Positions 31,882 to 64,000 of a stretch of DNA of 64,000 bases are shown here, piece after piece. Position 1 is the stretch's first letter, and every line of letters starts with the position of its first letter. Origin of the DNA: a virus (Duplodnaviria; Caudoviricetes). A program made the position numbers and the translations under genes. The stretch spans positions 256,001-320,000 of the IMG/VR virus record IMGVR_UViG_3300021431_000075; one strand, given 5' to 3'. The notes under the pieces were generated by a model. The model saw nothing but the letters and a program-made list of their open reading frames with translations, was not told the origin of the DNA and made no database searches.

Positions 31882-33654
31882 TCAAATTAGCGCGACGAAT
31901 TCCCCGTCCGTGTCCATCGCGGGACCGTTCCCGTAGTCTGTCAGCAGGGTTCCGTCGCCGATGGGAACGTACCGGTTCCTGTCCGCGAACCAGTCCGGAT
32001 CGACAAGCCTGCCCTGCGTGTCAATGTAGTTCGTCCTGATGACGGCCTGGTTGCCGTCGAAGCATAATGTCCTGACCTGCGCGAACCCGTCCGCGAACGG
32101 CATCGCGTCCTCGAAGAATGTTTCCGAAAGCAGGCGTCCGGTCCTGTCTATGAAGTTCCAGCCGTTGAGCTGCCGTAATCTGTCGTCCGACGCCGTGATG
32201 CAAACAGCGGCAAACCCCCCGCTGAACGGCTTCGCGTCCGTGATGGCGCACCCGATGTCCAGGGCTGTCATGCCGAAGTCCCTCGCGTAGTCGAGCATGA
32301 CTTCGGTTCCGCTCCTGTCTGTCAGGCGGTCTATCAGCTTTCCGTCAGCGCCTATGAAAGTCTTCGCGCCGGAGCCTCCGGTCTCGACAATCCCGAATCC
32401 GTCCCTGAATTCCGAGGCGTTCACGAACCACCGGTCCGAAAGGAGCCTTCCGTCCGTTCCGACATAGTTGAACAGTCCGTTGTTCTTGACGATTCCGAAT
32501 CCGCCAGAGAACCCGTAGCACCTCTGGAAGCCGGGCTTCAGCAGGAAGTTCCCGTTTCCGTCGATGTAGTTCCACATGCCTGATGCGCGCCGCACGGCTC
32601 CGAATCCCCCGCGGAACGCCTCCGCTCGGTCAAGCCTCTCCGGGGACAGCACGGTTCCGCCCTTGTCCACGTAGTTGTATCCGAAGGTCTCATGTCGGCT
32701 GTTCTCGTACCGTATGACAGCGAAGCCTTCGCTGAACCGCTCCGGCACATACCCGTCCGGCTCAAGGACGGTGTTCCCGTTCTTGTCTATGAACACGTAT
32801 TTCCCTGCTGTATAGTCGAAAACCCTTGCGACCCCGTCGCTGAAGTCGTCCGCCTTGTAGAACCCATTGCCGAACATGACGTTGCCGCTCTCGTCTATGA
32901 AGTTGTACCGGCTCTCCTGCGGCGCGCCGGAAATGCAGACCTTCGCGCATCCGTTGCTGAAGCTTCCGCACTCGCTGAACTCGAATCCTGTTATGAGACC
33001 GTGTCCGCGCCTTGCGTATGCATAGTCGGAACCGTCTATCCTGGTCACGAGCGTGCCATTGTCCGACACGAGCCTTGCGAAAGAGCGGACTATCTCTTTC
33101 CGTGCGGCATCCCTGCCCGTGCCCGGGAACACGCATGATATGAAATCGTCCCAGCCTTCCATGGAAAGTATCCGGATCTTGCCGGTGCCGTCGTCCGTGT
33201 ACGAGAATATGACAGCCGGGGAGCTTTCGCCGTTGACAACGGACACGGACACCTTGTACCGGATTGATGACGAATCCTCGGGCATGGTCCTCGGGAACGC
33301 CATGCGGACGAGCAGGTCGCAGAACCTCCCGACGCTCCCGTCCACGGAAATTCCGTCTATGAGTATCACCTTCGCGTCAGCCGGCGAGTCGTCGAACCTG
33401 TATCCCTTCCTGACATCCGGCTTTCCGCCGCCGTTCCTCATGTACCATCCGGCGGCGCTCCTGACTTGACCGAGCACCGCTTCCGGAGTGGTTATCCGCG
33501 CAATCCACTGCCGCAGGAACTCGACAGAGAGCGGAACCACCCTCGCGCCATTCCCGGCAGAATCGTCCGCAGGGAGATCCGAGTCAGTGACCTCGTCCGC
33601 CTCGACCCTGTCAAGCAGGCTCTCCGACATGTATCTGAACCGTTTCGTTTCCAT
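31882..33654 (-). CDS. WG-repeat protein (ESLLD leader)
   Basis: Start METKRFRYMSESLLDRVEADEV; F.EG.A.V..YNYID..G repeats; ends GEFVALI. Confidence 0.9.
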   Translation of the reverse strand: METKRFRYMSESLLDRVEADEVTDSDLPADDSAGNGARVVPLSVEFLRQWIARITTPEAVLGQVRSAAGWYMRNGGGKPDVRKGYRFDDSPADAKVILIDGISVDGSVGRFCDLLVRMAFPRTMPEDSSSIRYKVSVSVVNGESSPAVIFSYTDDGTGKIRILSMEGWDDFISCVFPGTGRDAARKEIVRSFARLVSDNGTLVTRIDGSDYAYARRGHGLITGFEFSECGSFSNGCAKVCISGAPQESRYNFIDESGNVMFGNGFYKADDFSDGVARVFDYTAGKYVFIDKNGNTVLEPDGYVPERFSEGFAVIRYENSRHETFGYNYVDKGGTVLSPERLDRAEAFRGGFGAVRRASGMWNYIDGNGNFLLKPGFQRCYGFSGGFGIVKNNGLFNYVGTDGRLLSDRWFVNASEFRDGFGIVETGGSGAKTFIGADGKLIDRLTDRSGTEVMLDYARDFGMTALDIGCAITDAKPFSGGFAAVCITASDDRLRQLNGWNFIDRTGRLLSETFFEDAMPFADGFAQVRTLCFDGNQAVIRTNYIDTQGRLVDPDWFADRNRYVPIGDGTLLTDYGNGPAMDTDGEFVALI

Positions 33655-33671
33655 CCGCTTGTTTCCATTGT

Positions 33672-35405
33672 TTATATGAACGCGACGAACTCCCCGTCCG
33701 GGTCCATCGCGGAGCCGTATCCGTATTCCGAAAGCAGGCAGCCGTCCTCGGACATGCAGTACCTGGCCTTGACGCAGAACGAGTCGTCCTCCGGAATCAG
33801 AAGCTCTCCCCTCGTGTTTATGAAGTTGTAGAACTTGACCGGCGTGTTCTCCACCGCCATCTCCACCCTCGCGATTCCGTTCACGAACGGCTCGCAGTAC
33901 ATGAAGAACCGGTCGGACAGCATCTTTCCGTCCGGCTTCATGTAGTTCCACCTCTTTATGTATCCGAGGGACACGCACACCCTTGCCAGCCCGCCGCTGA
34001 ACGGATACGCGTCAGTTATCGTGACCCTCTTCCCGTTCACCGTCCTGTCGAAAATCTTCCTGCCGGACGTGTCGATGAAGTTGTACGACGGGTTCGGGAA
34101 CGTGTAGTCCGTGTCGGACACGACAGCCAGCCCCTCGCTGAACCTGCGTGCGACGGAGAACCTGTCCTTGCCCAGCATCTTTCCGTTCCTGTCGACGTAG
34201 TGGTACATCATGTCCCGGCGGACGACCCCGTATCCGCACGAGAACGGACCGCCGCACCAGTCGCATCCGTCGTCGAGCAGCATCGTCCCGTCCGTCCGCA
34301 TGTAGTTGAAGCGGTTCTCCGGCTTGTCCATGGACACCACAGCCATGCCCTCCGAGAAGTCGCCGCAGGAGTCGAACCAGCTGTCGGACAGGAGCCTTCC
34401 GTCCCTGCCGATGTAGTTGAACTTGTTCACGTTCTTTCCGTACCTCACGACGGCGAACCCCTCGTGGAATCCGCCTTCCGGCAGGTAGTTCGTATTCGAC
34501 ACGGTCTTTCCGTTCCGGTCTATCACGCGCATCGACGCCTTGCCGTTTGCCGCGGTCCCGACGACTGCAAGCCCGTCCCCGAAGTCAGACGCGTAGTCCT
34601 GCCACTCATCAAGCAGAACCTTTCCGTCCGCGCCGACATAGTTGTAGCCGTCCATGTACTTGTCTCCGTCCCAGTCCAGCCTCTTCACGAGGGCGAAGCC
34701 GTCGCAGAACTTCCTGCATGCGGTGAAGTCGAACCCCGTCAGGAGTCCGGAGCCGCTCAGGTAGGCCCACTTGTCCCCGTCCACGTTCGCTATGCACGTG
34801 CAGTCCTCCGTCTGGAACCTTGCGTACGCGCCGGCAATCGCGCCCTGCGCGCCCTTCCGGGTCAGTCCCAGCTTCGGAAACAGCTGCGACGCGAACTCGA
34901 ACCATCCGTGAACGGAGAACTTCTTGCATTCGCAGTCCTTCCTGTTGTCGAAGGTGTTGGTTATGAGTATCCTGCCGGAATCGGACGGAATGTACGCGTC
35001 CGGGTCTCCGAACGACACGACGACCTTGTAGTCCTTCATCGTGGTCTGGAAGCCGTCCCTCTGCATGACCATGCGCACGAGCAGGTCGCAGAACCTCTCG
35101 AACGGCGTGTCGCTGTACAGGCTGAACCTGACAAGTATGCGCTTCTTCGTCTTCTCGTCGAAGTCGTCGAACTTGCTGACATCCACGTCGCATGTGAACG
35201 GACTGCTCCTGAGGACCCCTGTGATCTGGAACAGCAATATGTTCGGCTGCACGTACTCGGTTATCCATCCGTAGTTGACAGTGACCGTGAACTCCATTGG
35301 GATGCTCGGTCTTGACTCTTCTTCTATGACATCTTCCGAGTCCTCGACCTCGTCGGCATCCACCGAATCGAGCAGGCTCTCTCTTATCTGATATGTTCGC
35401 GCCAT
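33672..35405 (-). CDS. WG-repeat protein (ESLLD leader)
   Basis: YQIRESLLDSVDADEVED; FCDLLVRM; WG repeats; ends GEFVAFI. Confidence 0.9.
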   Translation of the reverse strand: MARTYQIRESLLDSVDADEVEDSEDVIEEESRPSIPMEFTVTVNYGWITEYVQPNILLFQITGVLRSSPFTCDVDVSKFDDFDEKTKKRILVRFSLYSDTPFERFCDLLVRMVMQRDGFQTTMKDYKVVVSFGDPDAYIPSDSGRILITNTFDNRKDCECKKFSVHGWFEFASQLFPKLGLTRKGAQGAIAGAYARFQTEDCTCIANVDGDKWAYLSGSGLLTGFDFTACRKFCDGFALVKRLDWDGDKYMDGYNYVGADGKVLLDEWQDYASDFGDGLAVVGTAANGKASMRVIDRNGKTVSNTNYLPEGGFHEGFAVVRYGKNVNKFNYIGRDGRLLSDSWFDSCGDFSEGMAVVSMDKPENRFNYMRTDGTMLLDDGCDWCGGPFSCGYGVVRRDMMYHYVDRNGKMLGKDRFSVARRFSEGLAVVSDTDYTFPNPSYNFIDTSGRKIFDRTVNGKRVTITDAYPFSGGLARVCVSLGYIKRWNYMKPDGKMLSDRFFMYCEPFVNGIARVEMAVENTPVKFYNFINTRGELLIPEDDSFCVKARYCMSEDGCLLSEYGYGSAMDPDGEFVAFI

Positions 35406-35727
35406 AAGAATCTGTGATTTATAGACTATAAACTATTTATTGCCGGTTGATTGTTCGGTGATGTTCCGCATATGGATAAGCAGAAAACCGCATATCTCTT
35501 GCGAAACGTGCGTTAAACTGAAATCAGGTTCTATCTTTTAGACAGGACCCGTGAATGGTTCCGATAAGAAAGCCGTCGTCAACAGACAGCCTTTCGCAAT
35601 ATGACAATGCGCGCGCAATGTCCTGCAGTTTCCACTAAGCATGCGTCTCGAATCATCCGCTTGCGGAATCAACTTAAGCATCTTACGGTCTTGTATGAAT
35701 GTTGTATGATTATTATATGAAATTAGA

Positions 35728-35918
35728 AAACCTTAAATCTTGAAAACTTTAATACCTTGAATCTTTAATACCTTGAATACTTTAATACTTTAATACTTTA
35801 ATACTTTAATGCCTTGAATACCTTTAATCTGCTACACGCCACTTGAAAACTTTAATACCTTGAATACTTTAATACTTTAATACTTTAATACCTTGAAATC
35901 TTGAATCCTTAAAATACC
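35728..35918. repeat. Minisatellite of 8-9-nt units (AATACTTT / AATACCTTG)
   Basis: About 20 units in two blocks. Confidence 0.9.
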
Positions 35919-36055
35919 CTATGACATGCCGTCGCCTCCTGCACGGCTCCGTTGCCGCTCGAATCAGGCATGCCTTCATAATTATATATCATCGGTTTTT
36001 TCAAAAAGTTTAAATTTCCCTGAAATTTTTACTCAATGACGCATATTTGTATATG

Positions 36056-36088
36056 AAAAAGCCGGATTCCTCCGCAGAACCCGGCTTC
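36056..36088 (-). terminator. Rho-independent terminator
   Basis: aagccgg...ccggctt with a U-run on the minus strand. Confidence 0.7.
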
Positions 36089-36110
36089 TCTGTTCACTTT
36101 CGCAGCCGTG

Positions 36111-37778: not shown

Positions 37779-37869
37779 AGCCTTATAATATATAAGATAT
37801 TTATGCGGAAAATGCGGAGACCGGACCGTTGCAAGTCCAGTCTCCGCACTATCGGGGACGGTGCCGAAA

Positions 37870-38346
37870 TCAGCACTCCTCCTCTATCCCGTCTATCGGC
37901 TCTATTCGCCTCCAGTAGAGGACCGTGAACATCGGGCTGTTGCCGTCGTTGAACACGGTGTCCCACTCGTCTCCGCCGACATACTCGCCGTTCACGTACT
38001 CTATCACCCCGCGGTACACGTATCCCGCAAGCCAGCAGTTCTCTCCCGGTCTCGGGCGCCTGCCGCTCCTTCTCACGCTCACCCACTCTTCCGGACGGCT
38101 TCCCGGCTTTCCGAAGTCGCTGTCCGAGAGTCCGTACACCGGGTCGTCGTCCCGCGCCGTCCATCCGTCTCCGCCTTCCCTGACAAGGTCCTCGACCTCC
38201 CCTATCACGTAGTTGAGCACGTTGATTCCCTCTCCGCTTCCGCACTCCCTGAGGATGCGCTCGAGCCTTCCGAGTCCGTCGTCAAGGCTGTCCGGCCTGG
38301 TGAACTCGCCCCTGTTGGCGAAAGGCCTGTTGCTTCTGTTGTCCAT
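37870..38346 (-). CDS. Hypothetical protein
   Basis: ORF overlapping-coupled downstream of the HNH gene; WVSV..P..CW..VLYW. Confidence 0.65.
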   Translation of the reverse strand: MDNRSNRPFANRGEFTRPDSLDDGLGRLERILRECGSGEGINVLNYVIGEVEDLVREGGDGWTARDDDPVYGLSDSDFGKPGSRPEEWVSVRRSGRRPRPGENCWLAGYVYRGVIEYVNGEYVGGDEWDTVFNDGNSPMFTVLYWRRIEPIDGIEEEC

Positions 38347-38358: not shown

Positions 38359-40251
38359 CTAATCTTTTTCTTCCTCCGTATCTCCGGCGCTGCTGTCCAC
38401 CACCGGGATTCCCATCTTCTCCACCGCGCTGGCGTACTCCGCGAGCACCCTGCTGACGTCCTTCGCGTCCGCGAACCTGAACCTCAGCCCGAAAGCGCTC
38501 GCCTTGATGCCGCGGCAGCACCTGCTTATCTCCGGTCCGGGGACCCCGCTGAACTCGGACGCCTCGCCGAGGGACCTGAACTGCCGCTCCGTCCCGTTCG
38601 GCAGCGTGACGATGACCGGCTTCCTTCCGCGCGAGCCGAGCGCCCTGCCCTTGCCTCCGCGCGACAGCATTTCCGCGTTCCTCTCCATCGACTCCATGCT
38701 CTCCGCCCTCTTCCGCGCGCGCATCTCCGGGTCCTTCATCGCGCGGCGCACCTGCCTCATCCCCGGAACGTCCATCAGCGGGTTCCCGTGGCTTCCGCTC
38801 CGCATCGCGCGCTCGACAGCGGCGTCAGGGTTGTCAATCCACTCCCTGACGGTCCCCGAGTCGAGCTGCACAGGCCTTTTCCTGTACGGTCCGCGCCCAG
38901 GCTCCGACTCCTTGTACAGATTCGTGATGTCCGTGTCAACGCCTGCAAGCGCGCTCTGATGGGTCCTCTTGACAGTCCTTATCGCCTCTCCGACCGTGCC
39001 GTACGCGTCATATGTCGCAAGCGGAACCTCCATCGCGGACTTCGGAAGCACTGTCCCCGCTTCCGCGGAGCCGTTTTCCGCATGCAATGAAGCGTCAAAA
39101 ATGGATGCATCGATAACGGATGAGTCGATGACAGAGGTGTCAATAGCGGATGAGTCGGCCGCCTCCGGCGCGTCCTCGAACTCGAACTTCCTCCAGTGCC
39201 GGTTCCAGAACTCCCTGCGCCTCTCGTCCATCTCCGCGTACTCCCCGACGGAGCCTTTCTCGCGGTCCGCCCTGATGTTCGCGAGCTCCTCGGCGAGCTG
39301 GCGCTTCTCTTCCCTGAGGAAGTTCCTGCGCTCAAGCACCGCCTCCTTGGATATGCGCTTCTCGAGGGTCGCTATGCGCTTCTCAAGGGTCTGCATCGCG
39401 GGTCCCTCCGACAGCACCACGCTCTTGATTTCGGAGTGGCGGACCTTCTCCGCGAACTTCCTCAGGAAGCTGTCGAACATCTCCGGCTTGTCTATGGTCA
39501 GCGCGCATATCGACGCGAGCCTGCTGAGCATCGCCCTCTCGAGGTCGGCGGGCCTGGATATGACGTTCATGTCCTTCGGCACGAACAGCATCACCTCGTT
39601 GTCCGCGAGCTCCCGGATGTTCTCCCTCGTGAGCCTTGTCTTGACCGTGGAGTATATCTCGTCTATCAGCTCGTCCCTTATCCGCCTCTCCATCTCCGCG
39701 CGCATAGACTCCATCTCCGCCTCCCTGGCATGCATGCGGACGGCATCATATACCTCGGGCGAAATGTCGCACCGCCACTGCGCGCCGGTCGAGGGGTCCG
39801 TCGCGACCACGGAGAACGGCTCCCCGTCCGCGGAAGGCTCCCTGACCTCGGTCCTGAGACCGGACGGAACCGCAGTGCCGGTATTCCGCGCCTCCGCGCT
39901 GAGCGGACGGAACGAGCCTGCGGACGGCTCCAGTCCCGCGACCGGAAAGGTCCCTGCGGTCCGTTCGTCCCATGCGAGGTTGTCTGCGGAGCAGTCGGAC
40001 AGGTCCCCGTTCAGGTGAACGACCCCGGAGCACCTGTCCGGGTTCGGCATGAACGCCTCGGCTACGAGCCTGTCGAGCGCGAAGTCCGTTCCTCGGAACC
40101 TCGCGTACGTCCTTCCGTCCGGTCCGGTCATCGTCCGCGGAGCCATCAGCAGCTTTCCGCTCCTGTGCGCCCTCACCGTGTACCACGGCTCCAGATATGA
40201 TATGTCGCGGAAGTCGTCCGCGGCTGTGTTTCTTCTTGTTTCCATCAGCAT
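38359..40251 (-). CDS. Degenerate HNH domain + coiled coil + NUMOD1-like C-terminus
   Basis: LDRLVAEAFMPNP..VVHLNGDLSDCSADNLAW; KPVIV..FRSLGEAS..ISRCCRG..AFGLRFRF; GATAAATA at 40282-40289. Confidence 0.8.
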   Translation of the reverse strand: MLMETRRNTAADDFRDISYLEPWYTVRAHRSGKLLMAPRTMTGPDGRTYARFRGTDFALDRLVAEAFMPNPDRCSGVVHLNGDLSDCSADNLAWDERTAGTFPVAGLEPSAGSFRPLSAEARNTGTAVPSGLRTEVREPSADGEPFSVVATDPSTGAQWRCDISPEVYDAVRMHAREAEMESMRAEMERRIRDELIDEIYSTVKTRLTRENIRELADNEVMLFVPKDMNVISRPADLERAMLSRLASICALTIDKPEMFDSFLRKFAEKVRHSEIKSVVLSEGPAMQTLEKRIATLEKRISKEAVLERRNFLREEKRQLAEELANIRADREKGSVGEYAEMDERRREFWNRHWRKFEFEDAPEAADSSAIDTSVIDSSVIDASIFDASLHAENGSAEAGTVLPKSAMEVPLATYDAYGTVGEAIRTVKRTHQSALAGVDTDITNLYKESEPGRGPYRKRPVQLDSGTVREWIDNPDAAVERAMRSGSHGNPLMDVPGMRQVRRAMKDPEMRARKRAESMESMERNAEMLSRGGKGRALGSRGRKPVIVTLPNGTERQFRSLGEASEFSGVPGPEISRCCRGIKASAFGLRFRFADAKDVSRVLAEYASAVEKMGIPVVDSSAGDTEEEKD

Positions 40252-45884: not shown

Positions 45885-46472
45885 ATGAGAAAACAAAATA
45901 AGAGAGCTCTTTACGAGAGCATCATGAGAGATGTTGCTAAGGTTGTCAAGAGACGACTGAGCGAGGGTTTATATGACTTTGATTCAACAAATTCATACGA
46001 TGATGTTGATGACATTATTAATAGAAGAGATGAAGAAAGACGCAGAAATGAATTTGCTGAAAAATATGAAATTGTTGACAAAATGCCAATAGAAGGTTTT
46101 AGGAGAGTTGTGAATAAAAATACAGGCAAAGAAAATTATATAGACTCAAAAGGTCGTTTTATTTCAAGAAATTGGTATGATAGGTGTTATCCGTTCAATA
46201 AAGAAGGTTATGCAAAAGTTAGAACAACAAAAGTTAGAACAAATAATTTTGGAGAACGATACACATATAATCTTATGAATAAAGACGGACGTATTTTGTT
46301 TGGGTACTGGTGTGAAGAGTTGCATGATTTAAAGGACAGCGATTATGTATTAGTTAAGATAAACGGTTCTTATAATTTTATAGATCTGCATGAAAGATTT
46401 TTGTTTAATTCATGGTTTAAATCCAAAGCCGATGCTTTAGAAGCTTATTATAAACATTATGAAAAATTGTAA
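45885..46472 (+). CDS. LYESIMRD-leader protein with short WG-like repeats
   Basis: MRKQNKRALYESIMRDVAKVVKRRLSE; NYIDSKG, FNKEGYAKV. Confidence 0.85.
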   Translation: MRKQNKRALYESIMRDVAKVVKRRLSEGLYDFDSTNSYDDVDDIINRRDEERRRNEFAEKYEIVDKMPIEGFRRVVNKNTGKENYIDSKGRFISRNWYDRCYPFNKEGYAKVRTTKVRTNNFGERYTYNLMNKDGRILFGYWCEELHDLKDSDYVLVKINGSYNFIDLHERFLFNSWFKSKADALEAYYKHYEKL

Positions 46473-46546: not shown

Positions 46547-46641
46547 GTAAGAGTTATGTCAATTTCAATGAACAGTTATGTTTGTTCTGTTTCTTTTGGA
46601 CATTCTCAATAAATATCAATATAAACCATGCTGTTGGAAAA

Positions 46642-46896
46642 ATGTCTGCATATAAATTCTTGAATGAAAGCTTGCTGGATGATGTTGAAACTGATGATGT
46701 TGATGATGTTGATATAGAAGCAGAAGATAGTTTTGCGGGAGAAGAGCCTTTTGTTTGGGTTTTTAAATACGAACACACTGTTCCGTCATGCACGAGGGAT
46801 TATCTCAATAAGATACTGGCAAGCAGCGAGTGTGTTGGAAAGTTTGACGAACTTATGTTTAATGATGACTATATTGCAGGCATTGGAACGGATTGA
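46642..46896 (+). pseudogene. Truncated 5' copy of the WG-repeat gene at 50214
   Basis: Near-identical to 50214..50463, then switches sequence at an 18-bp microhomology. Confidence 0.9.
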
Positions 46897-51982: not shown

Positions 51983-52579
51983 ATGTGGTTGACAAGCAAA
52001 GAATTTAGAAAGAAATATAAGATAACACCCCAACATCTGTATGCATTGAAGAAATCCGGGAAGATAGAGACCAAGCCGTCAGTCGGTTCGTCATACTTAA
52101 TAAACGACTCTTTTGAATCAGAAAATAAGTCTGTGTGTGTTTATGGAAGAGTGTCTACACCGAAGCAGTCAAAAGACCTTGACAACCAGATAAGACTCAT
52201 CAAGGAATACTGCATATCAAGGGGTGAGAACCCTGAATATGTGTTCAGCGATATCGGTTCTGGAATGAACGAGTCAAGAAACAGTTTGAACAAAATGCTC
52301 GACCTTGTCATCAATAATAAGATTTCCAAGATAGTAATTTCACATAAGGACAGACTTACAAGATTCGGTTTCAAGTACATAGAGAACATCTGCAACAGGT
52401 TCGGGACGACAATCGAGATTGTGAATCTTGATGACGACAAGTCGTTTCAGGAAGAGTTGACTGATGATTTGATAGCAATAATTCATCACTTCAGCATGCG
52501 TTTCTACGGAAAAAGACGAGACAAGATGAAGGACTTTGAGAGAACTTGCAAAAACGAGTTATTGAATGAAGATAAATAA
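51983..52579 (+). CDS. tnpA: IS607 serine-recombinase transposase
   Basis: N-terminal HTH; YGRVST..Q..DL.NQ; DIGSG; DRLTRFG; EELTDDLIAIIHHFSMRFYG. Confidence 0.95.
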   Translation: MWLTSKEFRKKYKITPQHLYALKKSGKIETKPSVGSSYLINDSFESENKSVCVYGRVSTPKQSKDLDNQIRLIKEYCISRGENPEYVFSDIGSGMNESRNSLNKMLDLVINNKISKIVISHKDRLTRFGFKYIENICNRFGTTIEIVNLDDDKSFQEELTDDLIAIIHHFSMRFYGKRRDKMKDFERTCKNELLNEDK

Positions 52580-52601
52580 TATATAAAAGATAAAATTTAT
52601 A

Positions 52602-53855
52602 ATGATAAGGTCTTGGAGTATAGTGACAGAAGCAAACGACATCATTCATGGAATGATGTCGGAAGCGTTGTCCATATATGACAAGGCGCTGTACTTCCAG
52701 CGACAAAGATACTTCGAGACAAAAAAGCAGGGAGACATAAAGACATATGATTATAATGACTTGTACGAGCTGGTGAAAGAAACCGACGTGTTCAAGAACT
52801 CGAAACTGGACTATGTTCTTCGTCAGAATCAGATAAGGGAAGTTATAGCGAACTGGAACAAGTATATCAAGGCTGTGATAAGGTACAAGGAGCATCCAGA
52901 ACTGTTCGACAAAAAGCCGAGGATACCGAACTACTTGTATAAGCGCAAGAATTATACGTCAGTATATGTAGACAGTTCGAGGTTCAGAAAGGGAAAGAAG
53001 AAGATAGAACACTCGATTACCTTGCCTTGTACAACGGAATGTATTGTGATTCCAAGACAGATAGACATCAAGAGCATACACCAATTGATACTGAAGCCGT
53101 ACTACGGCAAAGTGAAGATTTGCATCATATTCAATGAAAAAACAAAGAAAATAAAAATAGATTCAGACAAGCGTTCAGCAATCGGGATAGATATTGGATT
53201 GAACAACTTCTGTGCCATAACTTCAAACGACAAGAGCATTTCTTATGTCGTTAAGGGTGGTCCGCTGAAGAGCATCAACCAGTACTACAACAAGAAGAGA
53301 GCGGAACTGTACTCTGAACTTGCAAATTGCAACAAGAATCAAGATTCAAGCCATGCTTTGGACAGACTCTCCATGAAGCGCAAGCACAAGATGTACAACT
53401 TCATACATGCTGTTGCAAACAGAATCATAATGCTCTGCATAGAGAACAGGATTTCAACCATCTACATTGGTCACAACAAGGGATGGAAGCAGAATGCAAA
53501 TCTTGGTCGCAGAAACAACCAGAACTTCGTTTCTGTTCCGTTCAATGAACTGATTAATACGTTGCAGGACAAGGCGAAGCGTTACGAGAATCTTAAGGTG
53601 GTTGTAGTTGAAGAAAGCTACACAAGCAAGTGCGATCACTTGGCTTACGAGACTATGGAACACCATGACACGTATCTTGGAAAGCGAATCAAGAGAGGAC
53701 TGTTCAAGAGTTCGACTGGAAAGGAACTCAACGCTGACATAAACGGTGCCATAGGAATCTTGAGGAAAGGAAATGCAATCTCGGATGTTCAACTTAAGAA
53801 CTTACGGGATAGAGGCGATGTTGTATCGCCAGAGGTGTTGAGAATCAACCCTTAA
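52602..53855 (+). CDS. tnpB: RNA-guided endonuclease TnpB
   Basis: GIDIGLNN, EESYTSKC, RIKRGLF, NADINGAIGILRK. Confidence 0.93.
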   Translation: MIRSWSIVTEANDIIHGMMSEALSIYDKALYFQRQRYFETKKQGDIKTYDYNDLYELVKETDVFKNSKLDYVLRQNQIREVIANWNKYIKAVIRYKEHPELFDKKPRIPNYLYKRKNYTSVYVDSSRFRKGKKKIEHSITLPCTTECIVIPRQIDIKSIHQLILKPYYGKVKICIIFNEKTKKIKIDSDKRSAIGIDIGLNNFCAITSNDKSISYVVKGGPLKSINQYYNKKRAELYSELANCNKNQDSSHALDRLSMKRKHKMYNFIHAVANRIIMLCIENRISTIYIGHNKGWKQNANLGRRNNQNFVSVPFNELINTLQDKAKRYENLKVVVVEESYTSKCDHLAYETMEHHDTYLGKRIKRGLFKSSTGKELNADINGAIGILRKGNAISDVQLKNLRDRGDVVSPEVLRINP

Positions 53856-53927: not shown

Positions 53928-55802
53928 ATGTCTGCATATAAGTTACTGAATGAAAGCCTTCTTGATGATGTTGATGCTGATGAAGTAGAAGATGTCGAAA
54001 ATGATGTTTCCATTGGATTTTCATTAACGATAAAAGCTGCACGCAAAATCACAGATAAAGAATATGTCAAGTCTTTTCGTGAACATATGCGATTCGCCGC
54101 CGGACGGTTCAGCGATTCGGGATGTCAGGTTGGTTTGGATGTGAACGTGATGAAATCTGATTATCTGGAAGGGAAAATAAAGATACAGAGAAATCTTTAT
54201 GTTTATGATTTTTGCAATTTGTTTGTGCAGATGTTTTTCCCGAATGGTTGTAGCTGTTTCGGAAGCATCGGTTATGTTAACTTAGATTTGGAAGTGGCAA
54301 TAGCAGGCGATGAATATGTGAAGTGTATGTTTGTAGACAAAGAAGAAAAGAAGACATTGAATATAAGCAAAACGTCAACGTTTTTAAGTTTCTTTCATGT
54401 GTTGTTTCCTGAAGAAAAAGATGATTCGATCATCAAGTCTTTTGTAAGTGCATTTAAAAACTGGAAGAAAGAGAAAGGGGAAGCGATTGAAATATGCTTT
54501 GATTATGAAGGACGCGATAGAACTTATTTCATATATGCAAACGGAAATATGCTTTCTGATATGCATTTTTATGAAGTTGAAGATTTCAAAGAAGGTTTTG
54601 CACAAGTCAAGAAGAACGACAAATGGAATTTCATAGACACGGGCGGAAATTGTATTTCAAAAGACTGGTTTGATTATGTCGGTAATATTCAAGAAGGTTT
54701 TGCTCCAGTCGTGGAGAAAGGCAAATGGAATTTTATAGACATGGACGGAAATCGCATTTCAAAAGAATGGTTTGATTTTGTCGGTGTTTTCCAAGAAGGT
54801 TTTGCACTGGTCAAGAAGAACGGCAAAAGTAATCTCATAGATACAAGCGGAAAAATCATCTTGAATGACTGGTTTGATTATGTCGGCGCTTTTCAAGAAG
54901 GTTTTGTAAGAGTCATGAAAGGTAGTGAATGGAATTTCATAGACATGAATGGAAATTTTATTTCAAAAGAATGGTTTGATTTTGATGATGTTTTTGATTT
55001 TCAAAAAGGTTTTGCAAAAGTCTATAAAGATGGTAAATATAATTTCTTAGATACAAGCGGAAAATGCATTTCAAAAGACTGGTTTGATTGTGTCGGTGTT
55101 TTCCAAGAAGGTTTTGCACAAGTCAAGAAGGACGGCAAATGGAATTTTATAGGCACAAATGGAAAATGCATCTCGAATGAGTGGTTTGAACGTGTCGGTA
55201 ATTTTCAAGACGGTTTTGGATGTGTCAAGAAAGATGGTAAAAGTAATCTCATAGACACAAGCGGAAAAATCATCTTGAATGACTGGTTTGATTATGTCGG
55301 TGTTTTCCAAGAAGGTTTTGCGCCGGTCGAGAAGAACGGCAAATGGTATTTCATAGACAAAAGTGGAAATCGTATTTCAAAAGACGGGTTTGACGATGTC
55401 GGGGATTTTCAAGAAGGTTTTTCATATGTCAATAAGAAAAACAAGTATAATTTCATGGACACAAGCGGAAATTATATTTCAAAAAGATGGTTTGATAACG
55501 TTTTGGATTTTCAAGAAGGTTTTGCACAAGTCAAGAACAAAGGCGGATGGAATTTCATAGATACGAAAGGCAAGCTTCTGTATAAGAAAGGGATGTTTGA
55601 CAAATGCGAAGATTTCAAGCAAGGCGTCGCTCTGGTCGTGAAAGACGGCAAGTATTCTTACTTGAACACTTCTGGAGAACTCGTTTGTGACTATTTCGAC
55701 AACCGGTTTTCTGTTGTCCGCATTTCGGATGACATGTTTAGGTTGCAGTATGGTTTGGGTTCCCTCATAGATTTGAATGGGGAAATCGTCTCGCTGATTT
55801 AG
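53928..55802 (+). CDS. WG-repeat protein (ESLLD leader) with ~11 near-identical repeats
   Basis: MSAYKLLNESLLDDVDADEVED; FQEGFA.V...KWNFID..G..IS..WFD; ends GEIVSLI. Confidence 0.93.
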   Translation: MSAYKLLNESLLDDVDADEVEDVENDVSIGFSLTIKAARKITDKEYVKSFREHMRFAAGRFSDSGCQVGLDVNVMKSDYLEGKIKIQRNLYVYDFCNLFVQMFFPNGCSCFGSIGYVNLDLEVAIAGDEYVKCMFVDKEEKKTLNISKTSTFLSFFHVLFPEEKDDSIIKSFVSAFKNWKKEKGEAIEICFDYEGRDRTYFIYANGNMLSDMHFYEVEDFKEGFAQVKKNDKWNFIDTGGNCISKDWFDYVGNIQEGFAPVVEKGKWNFIDMDGNRISKEWFDFVGVFQEGFALVKKNGKSNLIDTSGKIILNDWFDYVGAFQEGFVRVMKGSEWNFIDMNGNFISKEWFDFDDVFDFQKGFAKVYKDGKYNFLDTSGKCISKDWFDCVGVFQEGFAQVKKDGKWNFIGTNGKCISNEWFERVGNFQDGFGCVKKDGKSNLIDTSGKIILNDWFDYVGVFQEGFAPVEKNGKWYFIDKSGNRISKDGFDDVGDFQEGFSYVNKKNKYNFMDTSGNYISKRWFDNVLDFQEGFAQVKNKGGWNFIDTKGKLLYKKGMFDKCEDFKQGVALVVKDGKYSYLNTSGELVCDYFDNRFSVVRISDDMFRLQYGLGSLIDLNGEIVSLI

Positions 55803-55841
55803 AGAGCGGATTTCAATAAATATCTTATAAAACTTAAATCA

Positions 55842-57347
55842 ATGAGCGGAATGTCTGTATATAAATTCTTGAACGAGACTCTTCTTGATGATGTTGATGC
55901 TGATGAAGTTGTTGACGATGACGCTTCTGTCGGTTTTGATGGCGCAAGAGCGGTATATTTGAGGTTCAGCAAATACAGGCAGGTTGCTAAAGGCAACAGT
56001 GCTGCGCTTGAGAAGTTTCTCGGCAGGTGCGGGTTTGTTGAGCGGTTCACTGTGGATGACGACTGTGAGTCCATCGGGATGCTGACTTCCGGAATGAAAC
56101 TTGCTGATTTGTGCAGGGTGGTTTGCTATGCGTTGTTTGTTCTTGCGGCAAAGACAATAAGGTCGGATAACAAATTCATAAATCTTGTAGATCTTTTTAC
56201 CATATGGGATGAGAAAGAAAATTTCAACGTGTATATCAATCTCGGGCCTGATGACGATCCGAAATTGAAGGTTGGATACGAATTTGCGCGGTTTTTCATG
56301 AAGTGGTTCCCGGATGTTGGAGAGAAAGATGCGTTCCTGTGCTTTGTCAGGGAATTCATACGGATATGGGGAAAGTTCGTTGACTTTGGAGACATGTTCA
56401 GTGCCAGCTGGTTTCATAAGGATTCGCGTGAGCCGTCTTGTGTGCTGTTCGACAGAAGCGGGAATGTTGCCGCGGATTATGACTGTGTGTTCTGCGACAA
56501 TGAGTTCCATGACGGTTTTGTCCGTATCAAGAATGACGAAGGAAGATGGAACTATGTTGACAGGGACGGCAATCTCCTGTTTCCTGACAGGTGGTTCAAG
56601 CATTGCAACCCGTTCTCCTGCGGATATGGCTCTGTGTTGACTGATAATCGTCTATATAGACTCGTAAAAACGGACGGGACGCTCATCGAGAGAGGTTTTG
56701 CTGAGTGTGGAATTGTTGTCGGGAACTTTGTCTCGGTTCGGTTTTACAAGAACAAGGATATATGGACCATAATCGACTTAAGCGGCAGCAATTCTGACAT
56801 GGACGGTTTCAAGATATTGAGCGACAGGTTCCATGACGGCTTCATAGTGGTCAGGACGGGAAAATATCAACCCGCGTTTATGGACGAGTTTGGAAATGTT
56901 CGGTTCGGACCGCACAGGCAATGCCGTGACTTCCACTGCGGTTTCGCCATCGTCTCTGATGAACAGGACAAGTATAAATATTTGGCGAAGGACGGGAGGG
57001 AGAGCCGATGCTTTCACAAGTGCCATGATTTCGATGGCGGCTATGCCGTCGTGGAGAACGGCGACGGCGGATTCAACATAATAGACGAGAACTTCAGTCT
57101 GATGTTTGACAAGTGGATTGCCGGCGAGTGCGAGAATCTCGGCGGCGGAATGTTCAAGGTTGTTCGTGCAGCGAAGTCGGACGGGCAGCAGAAAGTCAAT
57201 TTCTTGAGTGTTGAGAACGGCTGGATGGACACGCAGTTGGATTTCGACAACGGAGTCAGGTTCAGGTTCGATGACGGGATTCTCATGGCAAGCGATGGAC
57301 TGTGTGTCGATTTCGGTTCGGAGCATGAATATGCGGCGTTGATTTGA
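55842..57347 (+). CDS. WG-repeat protein (ETLLD leader)
   Basis: SVYKFLNETLLDDVDADEV; ends YAALI. Confidence 0.9.
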   Translation: MSGMSVYKFLNETLLDDVDADEVVDDDASVGFDGARAVYLRFSKYRQVAKGNSAALEKFLGRCGFVERFTVDDDCESIGMLTSGMKLADLCRVVCYALFVLAAKTIRSDNKFINLVDLFTIWDEKENFNVYINLGPDDDPKLKVGYEFARFFMKWFPDVGEKDAFLCFVREFIRIWGKFVDFGDMFSASWFHKDSREPSCVLFDRSGNVAADYDCVFCDNEFHDGFVRIKNDEGRWNYVDRDGNLLFPDRWFKHCNPFSCGYGSVLTDNRLYRLVKTDGTLIERGFAECGIVVGNFVSVRFYKNKDIWTIIDLSGSNSDMDGFKILSDRFHDGFIVVRTGKYQPAFMDEFGNVRFGPHRQCRDFHCGFAIVSDEQDKYKYLAKDGRESRCFHKCHDFDGGYAVVENGDGGFNIIDENFSLMFDKWIAGECENLGGGMFKVVRAAKSDGQQKVNFLSVENGWMDTQLDFDNGVRFRFDDGILMASDGLCVDFGSEHEYAALI

Positions 57348-59167: not shown

Positions 59168-59186
59168 AACGTTATTTTTTTAATTT

Positions 59187-60989
59187 ATGTCTGTTATTTT
59201 TTTAAACGAGACTTTGCTGGATAGTGTTGAAGGTGATTCTGTTGAAGATCTTCATGAAGATTTTGAAGTGGACTTTGATGTTTCTTTTTCTATCACGTTT
59301 CCGCATATTGATGAGAATGACAACCAAAAGAAATGCTATAAGAAGAATGATGATTATATTTTGAATAAAGCGAGAGCCATGCTTGAGCATTATTCAAACG
59401 CAGGGCTTGTCAGTGAGTTTTCGGTTAAACGTTCCGAGCGTACAAACATACATTTCAAGATGAGTGGAAATTCTGTTCTTTATGATTTCTGCATGCTGTT
59501 TGTCAAGATGTTTTTGCCGCGGCACTGTTTCAACTCTGAATCAGGTTATATGATACAAGTCTGGTATTCCGACAACAAGATAGTTTCTATTACGAACGGC
59601 ATGGATGAAAGTTTTGATAGGTACAAGACGCTGGTTGTTGGAAGAGCATCAGATATTTGTAATCTGATTAAGAGATATTTTCCGGATGAGACTGAATATG
59701 AGATAGAGCGGACTTTTATTCAGGCATATGCGGAATGGCAGAGGGACGAGGGCGTTGTCAGTGTCGTCAGGATGATCGATTCGTATGATCATTTGAATGA
59801 GAATATAAGAGAGAACATAATAGACAAGTCGGGTAATCTTGTTCTTGACGAGTGGGTTACAGATGTCTCGTCGGTAAGCGAAGGCATCGCAATCATAAAG
59901 AAAGGGGGTTATGAAAGTTATTATGACATCGCGAAAAGAAAAGCGTTCATGAGCGTTTATTCAGGCGAAGATAATGATTGTCTGAACATGTTTAGGGACG
60001 GGCTTGCTTGTGTTGTTGCTGGCTCGAAGTGCAAGTTTGTTGATAAGAACGGAAACTATGTGTTTGGCGGCAAGGAGTTTTCAAATGCCGGTTGTTTTGA
60101 TAACGGTTATGCGATAGTTTGGAATGAAGACGATGATACATATAACTTTATCGGCAAGGACGGCAATCTTGTGTCTGAACAGTGGTTCGGAATGTGTCAT
60201 AGTTTTAAAGACGGCTTGGCTGCTGTCGTGTTGAATAACAGCGAAGATGAAAATCCGGACTCTATGGAAGAAGATAAGAATGAGAAGAGGTATAACTATA
60301 TAGACACGAGAGGAAACCTGATTTCCGAAATTCCGTTTTCTTATGCTGGTGATTTCAGCGAGGGGTTCGGTCTCGTTTCTATAAACAATAAGGGGTTCAA
60401 CTATATAGACACGAGAGGAAAACTGATTTCAGGCAAGTGGTTTGATTCGGCGCGACCGTTCAGCGGCGGGTTCGGCATCGTTTCCAAGAATGGGAAAAGC
60501 GTCTACAATTACATAAAGCCGGACGGAACGCTTCTTTTGGACCATTGGTATGACAAGTGTTACGATTTCAAGAACGGGTTTGGCATTGTCAAGGATTATA
60601 AGAGGTTCTTTTATGTTGATTCTAACGGAAATCGAATTTCCGATTCCTATTATGACTTATGCTTCAATTTCTGCGAGGGTTTCGCCGTGGTCTATTCTTC
60701 GTACAAATCCGATACGATGAGAAGATGCTATAACTACATAGACACGAAAGGGGAGTTTCTGTACAAGGACGGGATGTTCATGTCTTGTTATGATTTTGAG
60801 AACGGTCTCGGACTTGTTATGGTTGACAAGGGAAAGTATAACTATCTGGACAAGAACGGAAAACTTGTCTTGAAAGAGTGTATTGATGACTATATGCAAC
60901 TGGAGCGCGTGTCCGATTCGATTTTCAAACTTAATTATGGTGATGGTTCCTGTGTTGATTTGGATGGAGAGATGGTTGTTTTGGTCTAA
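59187..60989 (+). CDS. WG-repeat protein (ETLLD leader)
   Basis: MSVIFLNETLLDSVEGDSVED; ends GEMVVLV. Confidence 0.92.
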   Translation: MSVIFLNETLLDSVEGDSVEDLHEDFEVDFDVSFSITFPHIDENDNQKKCYKKNDDYILNKARAMLEHYSNAGLVSEFSVKRSERTNIHFKMSGNSVLYDFCMLFVKMFLPRHCFNSESGYMIQVWYSDNKIVSITNGMDESFDRYKTLVVGRASDICNLIKRYFPDETEYEIERTFIQAYAEWQRDEGVVSVVRMIDSYDHLNENIRENIIDKSGNLVLDEWVTDVSSVSEGIAIIKKGGYESYYDIAKRKAFMSVYSGEDNDCLNMFRDGLACVVAGSKCKFVDKNGNYVFGGKEFSNAGCFDNGYAIVWNEDDDTYNFIGKDGNLVSEQWFGMCHSFKDGLAAVVLNNSEDENPDSMEEDKNEKRYNYIDTRGNLISEIPFSYAGDFSEGFGLVSINNKGFNYIDTRGKLISGKWFDSARPFSGGFGIVSKNGKSVYNYIKPDGTLLLDHWYDKCYDFKNGFGIVKDYKRFFYVDSNGNRISDSYYDLCFNFCEGFAVVYSSYKSDTMRRCYNYIDTKGEFLYKDGMFMSCYDFENGLGLVMVDKGKYNYLDKNGKLVLKECIDDYMQLERVSDSIFKLNYGDGSCVDLDGEMVVLV

Positions 60990-61034
60990 ACGGAAAATTT
61001 CAATAAATATAGAAATGGAAACTGCTTGACTGTG

Positions 61035-62720
61035 ATGTCTGGATATAAGTTCTTGAACGAGACCTTGTTGGATAATGTCGAATCTGATGATGTTGAAGAT
61101 GTTGATGTTGAAACTACTGTTGAAGATTCCGAGTTCAATTATGATTTTAAGTTTGGTTATTCTAAGCCGATGCCTAATTTCTCTAAGCTTGAACTTGACA
61201 AGTTCTTGAATAAGTGTAGATTTATTCACGGCTCCAGAAGAGTTGAGTTTGGCATAAACAATGTAGACTTTTCTTTGAAGTTCTATTCATGTCATTTTGG
61301 TCTTTCCGACTTGTGTGAACTGATAGGATTTGTTGTCGGACTCGTAGGTTTGCATCGTGTGACAGTGTCCGGTTGTTATGAGATGCAAGGCGATGATATA
61401 ACACAGTCGTTCACAATAGACAACGCACAAGACGGTTTAGTTTATATAAGCAGCAAGAAGAAGTTTCTCGGGTTCTTCAAGATATATTTTCCAGATATTC
61501 CGGACAACAGGATTGTGGATGCTCTTGCTGGTAGTGTTGTCAAGCATGTTTATCATAGATTTATGAATACGAGTCCGGACGGTGAATATGTGGTTGTATG
61601 TCTTCAGAACGACTACAATATATTCATGGATGGAAAGCTGCTTTCGGAAGAGTGGTTTTCTTCATGCTCGTTGAATTTTTCTGACGGATTTGCCAAGGTT
61701 AGCAGAGATTATAGAGACAATTATATAGACAAGACCGGAAATCTTTTATCTCCTGAACGCTGGTTCAAACAGTGCTATGAATTTGAAAAGGGATATGGGA
61801 GGGTCGTGATTGACAAGTATGAGAATCTTGTTGATATAAACGGTAATGTTATATTCAAAGAGAATTTCGAATCATGCTTTGTTCCGGACGATGGTTTGTG
61901 CGTTGTTCAGAAAGACGGCAAGTGGAATATTGTCAAGCTGGATGGAAATTATGTTTTGGATGATTTTGCTGTTGATGTGAAATCGCTTGACTCCGGAATG
62001 TTCGGAATACAGTCGGATGACGAATTGTGGTCTATTGTCGATAAGGATGGGAATCCAATAACGACAGATAGGTTCGAAGAATGCCGTTCTTTTAGTTGCG
62101 GTTTCAGTCAGGTCAAGAGGGATGGAAAGTGGAACTATGTCGGACTTGATGGTAAGATTCTTGTGAAAGAACGGTGGTTTGATAGTTGCGCGGAGTTTTG
62201 TTATGGTTATGGAATCGTTACTGATAACGATAAAGAAGATTTTCGCACATATAATTTTATTGACATTCATGGAAATCTCGTTTCTAACGAATGGTATGAA
62301 CACGTATTTGTTGGAAATGGCGGATTTCTTGAGGTCCGTAACGGTATGGATTGCGCAAACTTGCTGAATACAGACGGAAGTCTGTTCTTTGATGAATGGG
62401 TTCATTATATCCATTTGCCTGATGATGACAACGGATGTGCAATAATCGCCAATAAAGACAAAAAAGAGAAGTTTTTGACTCGTGAATTTAGAATGATTCC
62501 TGATGGGGAGTGGCTTGATGAATGCTATCAATTTCGTGGAGAACTGGGTATGGTCAAGAAAGGAAAGAAGTTCAACTACATCAAGAAGGACGGAAGCTTT
62601 GTTTTTGGCAAGAATGACTGGTTTGTTGACAAGTACAAGTTCGAGTTGCGTGGAGACTTGCTTGTAGCAAGGGACGGAACGTGTTTTGATTTTGACGGAA
62701 ACTATGTTTCGACGATTTAG
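61035..62720 (+). CDS. WG-repeat protein (ETLLD leader)
   Basis: MSGYKFLNETLLDNVESDDVED; AATAAATA at 61002-61009; ends GNYVSTI. Confidence 0.92.
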   Translation: MSGYKFLNETLLDNVESDDVEDVDVETTVEDSEFNYDFKFGYSKPMPNFSKLELDKFLNKCRFIHGSRRVEFGINNVDFSLKFYSCHFGLSDLCELIGFVVGLVGLHRVTVSGCYEMQGDDITQSFTIDNAQDGLVYISSKKKFLGFFKIYFPDIPDNRIVDALAGSVVKHVYHRFMNTSPDGEYVVVCLQNDYNIFMDGKLLSEEWFSSCSLNFSDGFAKVSRDYRDNYIDKTGNLLSPERWFKQCYEFEKGYGRVVIDKYENLVDINGNVIFKENFESCFVPDDGLCVVQKDGKWNIVKLDGNYVLDDFAVDVKSLDSGMFGIQSDDELWSIVDKDGNPITTDRFEECRSFSCGFSQVKRDGKWNYVGLDGKILVKERWFDSCAEFCYGYGIVTDNDKEDFRTYNFIDIHGNLVSNEWYEHVFVGNGGFLEVRNGMDCANLLNTDGSLFFDEWVHYIHLPDDDNGCAIIANKDKKEKFLTREFRMIPDGEWLDECYQFRGELGMVKKGKKFNYIKKDGSFVFGKNDWFVDKYKFELRGDLLVARDGTCFDFDGNYVSTI

Positions 62721-62741
62721 AAAACTGCAATTTGAGAAAAG

Positions 62742-64000
62742 ATGAAAGATTTGTATATGAACGAGAGTTTGCTTGATGGAGTTGAAACGGATGAAATTGA
62801 AGATGATGTTGATGTAGATGAGAGCAGAGAAGTCATGTTGAAGATTACAACAGACCACATTCGCATTCGTCCGGATAATTTTTACAAGTCAGTTTTCGAT
62901 AGGTTTAGATATGTAAAGAATGTTGACTTTCATCATAATGCGCATATGTTCTTGTTCGAATTTGTGGAAACCGGGATGACGCTTGACGGAATGTTCGCTC
63001 TTTTGTGCAGGTTGATGTTTGTGACGACGAACGAGAAAGTCAATACTACAAGCAGGAATCCAATGAAACGCATATTTTACATATATGATAAACAAGAGAG
63101 ATGGTTCATTTGCAAGTTTTCGTTTAATGATCATAATCCGGATATTTGCTTAGGTGATTCGTTGTTTGATATTGTTGGAGACTATTTTCCGGATAAGAGT
63201 GTAGATGAGATAGTCGGTTCTTTTGTCAAGGAATGTGCCCGTGTTTATTTCTTTGACAACCATGAACAGAACAGTTTTAATGTTTCATATACAGTTAATG
63301 GAAACGAAGTCTCTCGGTTGTTTGATAGGAACGGAAATGTTTTATTTGATAGCGAAAGCGACTTTATATTGTGTGATTGTGATTTCAGAGACGGATTCTT
63401 GCCAGTCAAGAATCCAAACCCTGTACAATACGGTTGTGATTTCAATTATATCGACAAGGAAGGACATTTGTTGTCTGATGTGTGGTACTGGAAGTGCAGA
63501 CCGTTCAATAACGGGTTTGGGACGGTAATGAATGACAAATATCGATGGAACTATATAGACAAGAACGGTGATATATTGACTCCGGATGTGTGGTATGGTA
63601 GATGCGAGCCGTTTTCAGAAGGTTTTGCTCGTGTTTTGAAAGATAACGGTCGTGAGACTTTTGTTGACAAGAACGGTTCAATAATGGATAATGACTATGC
63701 GTATTGTTCTTCTTTTCATGACGGATATTCAATTGTTCAGAATGATAATGGTAAGTTCAATTTCATAGATAAGAAAGGAAATCTGTTAAGTAAGAATGTT
63801 TGGTTTGAATCGTGCCGAAATTTTTCAGAAGGTTTCGGACTGGTTTATGCAGATAATAAGAGAGGCTGGAACTATATAGATAAACATGGGGGATTCTTAT
63901 TAGATGTATGGTGTAGTAATTGCAAATCTTTTCATGGCGGTTTCGGTATAGTAAAATTTGCATCTAATGATGAAGAAACATTTGTGGATAGAAACGGAAA
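62742..64000 (+). CDS. WG-repeat protein (ESLLD leader), runs off the window end
   Basis: Manual translation MKDLYMNESLLDGVETDEIEDD; WG-repeat coding (tggaactatatagacaagaacggt) downstream. Confidence 0.85.
   Translation, partial: MKDLYMNESLLDGVETDEIEDDVDVDESREVMLKITTDHIRIRPDNFYKSVFDRFRYVKNVDFHHNAHMFLFEFVETGMTLDGMFALLCRLMFVTTNEKVNTTSRNPMKRIFYIYDKQERWFICKFSFNDHNPDICLGDSLFDIVGDYFPDKSVDEIVGSFVKECARVYFFDNHEQNSFNVSYTVNGNEVSRLFDRNGNVLFDSESDFILCDCDFRDGFLPVKNPNPVQYGCDFNYIDKEGHLLSDVWYWKCRPFNNGFGTVMNDKYRWNYIDKNGDILTPDVWYGRCEPFSEGFARVLKDNGRETFVDKNGSIMDNDYAYCSSFHDGYSIVQNDNGKFNFIDKKGNLLSKNVWFESCRNFSEGFGLVYADNKRGWNYIDKHGGFLLDVWCSNCKSFHGGFGIVKFASNDEETFVDRNG

Follow-up and report, generated by a model that had tools for sequence, protein, structure and literature searches.

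A candidate head-addressing tag on a large family of WG-repeat proteins in a Lak-related megaphage

The capsid targeting sequence of the T4 proteins IPI, IPII, IPIII and Alt is removed by the prohead protease gp21 (Mullaney and Black 1996, via PMC9026906), which cuts after L/I-x-E; the first 10 residues of IPIII suffice for packaging, and within the leader positions 4 and 7 serve targeting and positions 8 and 10 processing (PMC9026906). In the T4 record, IPII and IPIII begin MKTYQEFIAE↓A and IPI begins MKTFKEF...ITE↓A (arrows mark known or putative cuts throughout). Internal head or ejection proteins of SPN3US and phiKZ are also cut after Glu, by gp245 or gp175, and large paralogous families of head proteins have a precedent there, family B of SPN3US having 20 members (PMC5694885). 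Here we describe a family of WG-repeat proteins with a conserved N-terminal tag, encoded in a 64,000-nucleotide stretch of DNA (the window) that represents bases 256,001-320,000 of IMG/VR record IMGVR_UViG_3300021431_000075, a phage genome of 673,114 bp with direct terminal repeats. An earlier note on the window had proposed that eleven such genes encode leader-addressed, protease-matured proteins of the phage head. Having followed this up across the genome, we regard as evenly balanced between right and wrong the reading that the family is head cargo under a tag cleaved by a T4-type (S77) prohead protease; packaging, cleavage and ejection are steps that we infer.

The genome belongs to a relative of the Lak megaphages. 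Its capsid protein is 73% identical to the named major capsid protein of phage Lak / Hatfieldvirus porci and 71-83% identical to metagenomic relatives, of which there are hundreds. Described Lak phages recode TAG as an amino acid and have a GC content of ~26-31% (PMC8346664). In the present genome, TAG functions as a stop (86 of 611 genes, next to 339 with TAA and 186 with TGA), the code is standard and the GC content is 40.7%; hence, this phage is a Lak relative outside the alternatively coded clades described so far. Judged by its genes, the head module is of T4 type, with a capsid protein of the Gp23 family (110 bits in total), a Portal_T4 portal (224 bits) and a Peptidase_S77 protease. The portal agrees with the placement by Iyer et al., who grouped Lak-B8 with T4-related jumbo phages (PMC7824862).

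A tagged family of WG-repeat proteins

All eleven paralogs are present in the window and share the architecture that had been described for them, namely a leader, an acidic motif, a variable N-domain and WG beta repeats (Table 1). The leader endings are also as claimed (MSE, IRE, LCE, LDE, LNE four times, INE, LNE and MNE), and each is followed by [S/T]L[L/M][D/N]x[V/I/M]... D[E/D/S][V/I]xD. The next domain, of ~160 residues, is poorly conserved and holds an F..FC helix; this helix and the C-terminal D..G..V..I-stop both recur in a consensus of 49 sequences, as the earlier note had seen them. Its gene starts hold for the eight plus-strand paralogs, while 31882, 33672 and 36111 turned out to be the 3' ends of minus-strand genes; the 698-aa open reading frame (ORF) at 31882-33978 is over-extended, the conserved start being the Met at 33654. 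WG_beta_rep (PF14903) exceeds the Pfam gathering cut-off of 25.6 bits in six of seven family members scanned (26.1-173.5 bits), the gene at 55842 remaining below it. For the other four window members, six-frame matches to the same repeat lie above the cut-off at 31885, 57389 and 61035 and reach 21.3 bits at 62742.

The window holds only a fraction of the family. A scan of the genome with a hidden Markov model (HMM) of the leader, which the earlier note had suggested, gave 54 N-terminal matches with E-values down to 6e-13, so that the leader family extends far beyond chance. Starting from one paralog, phmmer found 45 relatives in the six-frame ORF set and a family HMM found 56; with fragments included, 60 genes totalling 101.5 kb belong to the family, which occupies 15.1% of the genome. 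Within the window, the earlier note had not listed the shortened copy at 46642, the WG proteins at 45885 and 47076, whose leader is a different one, and the gene at 31322 with a variant of that other leader. Pairwise identity among paralogs is only 18-30%. The predicted mature proteins measure 44-90 kDa and are acidic (median pI 5.0, median net charge -22), and one copy of each adds up to 3.6 MDa, which is small beside the more than 40 MDa of internal protein in SPN3US heads (PMC5694885).

Outside this genome, full-length relatives with the same tag were found only on phage-like metagenome contigs (P0003-P0008). A degenerate DNA pattern of the tag retrieved 11 JGI metagenome contigs bearing tandem arrays with the same tag and tail, most of which have no 40-mers in common with the phage genome; in IMG/VR the pattern had no match outside the phage's own record, and tblastn of one family member against 50,697 phage records returned none. 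Our literature searches found no paper on the leader-tagged family or on WG repeats in Lak phages.

The first part of the tag is typically a leader of 8-13 residues that ends in [LIVM]-N-E, as in MSAYKFLNE↓S, MFAYKFLNE↓S and MSGYKFLNE↓T; in most copies the distance between this Glu and the probable initiator Met is 7-13 residues. When 47 copies are aligned on this Glu, P3 is L, I, M or V in all 47, P2 is N in 36 and P1' is S, N, T or D in 45, and Tyr is more frequent than any other residue at -4 (14 copies) and -3 (9 copies). After the putative cut, the conserved residues are L at +2 (41 copies) and +3 (38), V at +6 (34), D at +9 (39), E at +10 (38), V at +11 (44) and D at +13 (46). Synonymous codons vary freely: where residues match, only 48% of codons are identical (44 copies), and the peptide stays constant in genes whose GC content runs from 28% to 64%. 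The tag is thus conserved at the protein level, and a DNA-level cause of the conserved 5' end, such as a recombination site or an RNA element, can be ruled out. Altogether, the tag probably consists of two parts, the leader and the acidic peptide SLLDxVExDEVxD.

Structure prediction sets the leader apart from the N-domain, in keeping with the earlier view of it as a separate element. In the AlphaFold2 (AF2) model of the 50214 protein, built on the paralog alignment (pLDDT 86.7, pTM 0.80), disorder is predicted for residues 1-35 (pLDDT 42-52), followed by an alpha/beta N-domain at residues 37-195 and beta hairpin repeats at residues 200-557. Modelled alone (pLDDT 73.8), the N-domain shows the order beta-alpha-beta-beta-beta-alpha-beta-beta-beta plus two helices. 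VIA-align against 48,161 chains gave generic ferredoxin-like/ACT-like sandwiches with a best Z of 5.3, which point to no particular function, and a search of BFVD gave no match at E <= 0.001; Foldseek of the full model against the PDB returned only loose beta-propeller-like repeat matches (TM 0.2-0.3, rmsd > 10 A), too loose to assign the repeats to one fold.

The first leader also heads 6-8 proteins that have neither WG repeats nor a Pfam match. Once the tag is taken off, neither BLAST nor HMM comparison relates their bodies to the family N-domain or to one another; by eye, they have a strand followed by an amphipathic helix that resembles the F..FC helix of the family. To judge from these proteins, the leader is portable, as it also stands on bodies unlike the WG family members.

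How does this family compare with the described systems? As in the T4 internal proteins, a short N-terminal leader ends in hydrophobic-x-Glu and sits on unrelated bodies, in a phage whose S77 protease, capsid and portal belong to the same families. The likeness of the leader to the T4 tag is specific, since length, aromatic positions and ending all agree. It is, however, probably a likeness of function and not of descent, as the bodies here are WG-repeat proteins, for which no homology to IPI, IPII, IPIII or Alt is expected. Moreover, the phage has 54 tagged genes where T4 has ~4, P2 is almost fixed as Asn, conservation is highest in the 13-residue acidic peptide behind the putative cut, and the proteins are large and acidic. 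The family has in common with SPN3US families A and B and with the phiKZ inner body that it is large, lineage-specific and found in a giant phage with a gp21-like protease, and the conservation of its tag recalls SPN3US gp53 and gp54, two diverged paralogs with identical N-termini. Yet it is 2-3 times larger than the SPN3US family, the cleavage motif there is A/S-x-E, and the members scanned carry WG_beta_rep instead of PF12699: Pfam scans of the seven members (E <= 0.01) gave only PF14903 and one weak unrelated match. While the SPN3US proteins were found in virions, the present family is known here from its genes. To bacterial WG proteins (PF14903; for example of Bacteroidales) the repeats are homologous, with E-values of 1e-20 to 1e-32 over 40-50% of the query; the bacterial proteins inspected match in the repeats only, have signal-peptide-like starts and possess neither leader nor acidic motif nor N-domain.

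The predicted prohead protease and the LNE motif

The gp21-like prohead protease that the earlier note had expected elsewhere in the genome is indeed encoded there, as a 612-aa protein whose full ORF scores 31.6 bits to Peptidase_S77 (cut-off 27) and also 21.9 bits to the phiKZ-type S80 family. It was found only with T4 gp21 as query; the Peptidase_S77 and S78 HMMs had no match in the six-frame genome, and phmmer of the ORF against PDB sequences gave none. The catalytic motifs GELDHP and VSSRA(A/C)G are retained in all 120 relatives of the protease. Its domain of ~170 residues is followed by an acidic, lysine-rich tail of ~440 residues with a helical C-terminal part, which resembles a scaffold; probably, all Lak-type relatives (550-640 aa) are protease-scaffold fusions.

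The tripeptide that ends the leader recurs in this protein. With six [LIVM]NE sites, the protease has the maximum among 612 genes (P = 4e-4, uncorrected), and in its relatives the mean is 5.3 sites per 590 aa, where the genome rate would give ~0.9. The protease domain is immediately followed by YLNES, in which Y189, E192 and S193 are invariant and N191 nearly so among 25 relatives that are 40-52% identical; the motif occurs in all common contexts among the 120 relatives. Self-cutting at the corresponding place in the C-terminal part is known from T4 gp21, phiKZ gp175 and SPN3US gp245 (PMC9026906, PMC5694885).

The capsid protein carries the same tripeptide, as (K)LNE↓DA, at residue 53-62 in 119 of 120 Lak-type relatives and at residue 55 in the phage itself; T4 gp23 loses a propeptide of 65 residues. 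A second leader of ~27 residues (...LYESIMRDVAKVVKRRLNE; consensus MR(K/R)QNK(R/K)xLYESIMRDVAKVVKRRLNE), which has no sequence relation to the first, heads 14 proteins, three of them WG proteins, and again ends in LNE. Four of these proteins adjoin the portal gene, and one has weak metallopeptidase matches. The strongest argument for LNE as the site of the protease is this convergence: the motif closes two unrelated leaders, stands in the capsid propeptide and recurs in the tail of the protease.

The bodies of the family contain fewer internal [LIVM]NE motifs than shuffled controls (18 vs 25.7 +/- 4.5), whereas the other proteins contain more (242 vs 182 +/- 13.5), which lends weak support to the idea that the family avoids internal sites. 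A complex predicted between the protease domain and residues 1-40 of one family member scored 0.01, a value that speaks neither for nor against binding.

Promoters, array and neighbouring genes

ATAAATA, often extended to ATAAATATCTTATAAT, lies at most 70 nt upstream of 23 of the 54 family genes (chance 0.012 per gene). The family genes that lack it are operon-internal and start 20-45 nt after the previous stop. Within the window, 27 boxes stand against 7.5 +/- 2.7 expected. The claim that most of the eleven genes follow such a box holds for six; the other five follow either the preceding paralog, at 20-45 nt, or an IS607-like insertion. In the genome, the box precedes 127 of 612 genes, mostly by 26-48 nt, including the portal gene, the protease gene and the gene that opens each array of the family. 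Its sequence is similar to that of the T4 late promoter, TATAAATA; T4 gp55 as query revealed no gp55-like sigma in the phage genome. Three family copies (genome starts 18948, 24072 and 25714) are instead preceded by TAnnTTTG, a motif of Bacteroidota type, and these copies lack [LIVM]NE and retain the acidic part. They would fit two supply routes for the family.

Table 1. Genes of the family and other features (window coordinates unless marked genome; arrow, putative cut; WG, score to PF14903)
Feature	Position	Strand	Leader	WG	ATAAATA box	Remarks
Protein, 183 aa	31322-31870	-	variant second leader, KRLYESVMRTLSKHVYRMLSE↓			no Pfam match
Paralog, 590 aa	31885-33654	-	METKRFRYMSE↓SLLDRVEADEVTD	match at genome 288473		60% GC
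Paralog, 577 aa	33675-35405	-	MARTYQIRE↓SLLD	70.7 bits	35434-35440(-)	59% GC
Paralog, 555 aa	36114-37778	-	21 residues, end LCE↓SLLD	26.1 bits	37798-37804(-)	65% GC
WG protein, 195 aa	45885-46469	+	second leader, MRKQNKRALYESIMRDVAKVVKRRLSE↓	27 bits	45855-45861	
Shortened copy of 5' end of 50214 gene, 84 aa	46642-46893	+	MSAYKFLNE↓SLLD		46609-46615	
WG protein, 344 aa	47076-48107	+	second leader, ...KRKLNE↓	91.5 bits	47046-47052	without N-domain
Paralog, 609 aa	48338-50167	+	end LDE↓SLMN	70.3 bits	48310-48316	
Paralog, 557 aa	50214-51887	+	MFAYKFLNE↓SILD	55.1 bits	50182-50188	modelled protein
IS607-like insertion in array	51983-53855	+				serine recombinase 51983-52576, TnpB 52602-53855
Paralog, 624 aa	53928-55802	+	MSAYKLLNE↓SLLD	173.5 bits, 8 stretches	none	most regular repeats; IS element upstream
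Paralog, 501 aa	55842-57347	+	MSGMSVYKFLNE↓TLLD	20.8 bits (below cut-off)	55816-55822	
Paralog, 592 aa	57389-59167	+	MSRILSINE↓SLLD			
Paralog, 600 aa	59187-60989	+	MSVIFLNE↓TLLD	101.6 bits		
Paralog, 561 aa	61035-62720	+	MSGYKFLNE↓TLLD		61003-61009	
Paralog cut by window end	62742-64000	+	MKDLYMNE↓SLLD			532 aa in genome
Prohead protease, 612-aa ORF	genome 624,494-626,329; locus L012:94-1932(-)					found with T4 gp21 as query, E = 0.003
Tagged non-WG proteins (examples)	genome 53,951, 56,576, 57,823, 406,916, 439,108, 507,902		first leader			

The short duplicate at 46642-46893, with an ATAAATA box to itself, testifies to rearrangement of the array. The IS607-like element scores 61.9 bits to Resolvase, 72.8 bits to OrfB_IS605 and 32.2 bits to Cas12f1-like TNB; ATAAATA boxes also precede both of its genes (51932, 51956 and 52572), and a near-identical TnpB N-terminus occurs in a second copy at genome 173,898-175,148. 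The paralog at 53928 is the only gene of array-first type that lacks a box, and the downstream ...AATATAAACCATGCTGTTGGAAA-ATG stretch is retained there.

Base composition varies along the window. Positions 1-44000 lie in a GC-rich zone (genome 210-300 kb) of 49-57%, against 40.7% genome-wide; the three minus-strand paralogs sit in a segment of 59-65% GC and the eight plus-strand ones at 35-48%. The spread among all family paralogs, from 28% to 64%, is unusual within one phage and could reflect exchange between relatives whose hosts differ in GC content. Between the minus-strand paralogs and the plus-strand array, still in GC-rich DNA, lies a gene preceded by an ATAAATA box (38362-40251, minus strand); its 630-aa product resembles HNH endonucleases at either end (matches to PHROG 959 and 20162). 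In the left part of the window, PHROG matches at 5135-6250(-), 1382-2176(-), 25380-26825(-) and 18375-19721(-) comprise a tail-collar-fibre-like gene (5135-6250), two DNA methyltransferase-like genes and a tRNA nucleotidyltransferase-like gene. As to the phage group as a whole, the capsid relative P0186 and the protease relative P0259 sit on contigs of 836,250 and 744,397 bp; public assemblies may thus hold still larger members.

Proposed head cargo and the alternatives

On the head-cargo reading, the family genes would be transcribed array by array from the phage's own ATAAATA-type promoters. The tag, composed of the leader (8-13 residues, the last three being [LIVM]-N-E, with an aromatic one often found 3-5 positions before the end) and the acidic, amphipathic peptide SLLDxVExDEVxD, would bring each protein into the core of the assembling prohead, where the T4-type (S77) protease would cut after the Glu. 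A mature, acidic protein of 44-90 kDa would then remain in the capsid, consisting of the acidic peptide, a ferredoxin-like N-domain and a binding domain of WG beta repeats. We can only speculate that the proteins are ejected and act as effectors.

Several observations weigh against this proposal. The best conserved residues of the tag, +1 to +13, are downstream of the putative cut, and the acidic peptide would remain on the mature protein; in T4, by contrast, the targeting information precedes the cut (PMC9026906). Since the acidic part is kept in the TAnnTTTG copies that have lost the cut site, it has a role independent of cutting, and it may be the actual docking element or a part of the mature function. 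The leader may also travel with a shared N-domain fold instead of alone, because the tagged non-WG bodies show N-domain-like strand and helix patterns by eye. As for the protease site, [LIVM]NE comprises only three residues, the enrichment in the protease protein fails correction for 612 tests, and the invariance of the capsid LNE is seen among relatives that are 71-99% identical. Late timing is assumed, as ATAAATA is found before genes of no obvious late character too, for example those of the IS607-like element. Finally, residence in the head is deduced from convergent sequence evidence.

Much of this would suit a different role, in which the proteins are made late and stay unpackaged, the acidic part of the tag docking them on a common partner (an assembly factor, a chaperone or a host target) and NE being a docking motif. 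The concentration of conservation after the Glu instead of in the leader, the copies behind host-type promoters, the large size and acidity so unlike the small T4 internal proteins, and the purely genomic knowledge of the family all speak for it. Docking leaves unexplained, however, why a second, unrelated leader also ends in RLNE and why the tripeptide is invariant at the boundary of the capsid propeptide and after the protease domain; nor does it account for the length and aromatic pattern that the leader has in common with the T4 tag. We consider it unlikely, though a serious contender. The proteins could instead be packaged and processed as head cargo would be, yet have a structural task, forming an inner body or spool that organises the 673-kb genome without any binding to the host, like the inner-body paralogs of phiKZ. 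In the heads of phiKZ and SPN3US, internal proteins that are paralogous and processed by a protease amount to tens of MDa (PMC5694885, PMC9026906), and a very large capsid may require internal organisation. But such a task creates no obvious need for more than 50 members with a mutual identity of only 20-28%, the acidity of the proteins (median net charge -22) argues against direct condensation of DNA, and repeat domains of the WG kind are usually binding modules, which makes a structural role distinctly improbable in our estimation.

Least probable, and indeed quite doubtful, is a place on the virion surface, as adhesins, decoration proteins or alternative receptor-binding proteins whose conserved N-terminus would anchor interchangeable modules, as in phages with multiple tailspikes. 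Bacterial WG proteins are typically exported (P0010, P0012 and P0015 have signal-peptide-like segments at their starts), the diversification of the family resembles that of receptor-binding proteins, and the window contains a tail-collar-fibre-like gene. Known anchors, however, are folded and conserved domains, whereas the part shared here amounts to only ~25 disordered acidic residues next to an N-domain that is the most variable part of the protein, and the seven scanned members gave no structural Pfam match besides the WG repeats.

A more far-reaching version of the head-cargo reading, which we think improbable, holds that the head carries, and injects together with the DNA, more than 50 diversified binding proteins with repeat domains under a cleavable tag, a pre-made repertoire directed against variable host defences or against surface or cytoplasmic targets. 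If true, the capsid would bear something equivalent to a diversified receptor family, and sequence alone would suffice to list the entire cargo of Lak-type phages, recognised by two leaders that share the ending LNE.

Lak-type megaphages, which are frequent in the guts of humans and animals, are uncultivated, and for the majority of their genes no function is predicted. If the tag does address proteins to the head, what such very large capsids carry would become readable from the genome, here as 54 proteins with the first leader and 14 with the second. Cleavage would leave neo-N-termini of the form S/T/N/D-LLD..., for which existing gut or rumen metaproteomes can be searched. The targeting principle of T4 would then scale to a family that occupies 15% of a genome, and WG repeats, so far familiar from exported bacterial proteins, would gain a role in a virus particle.

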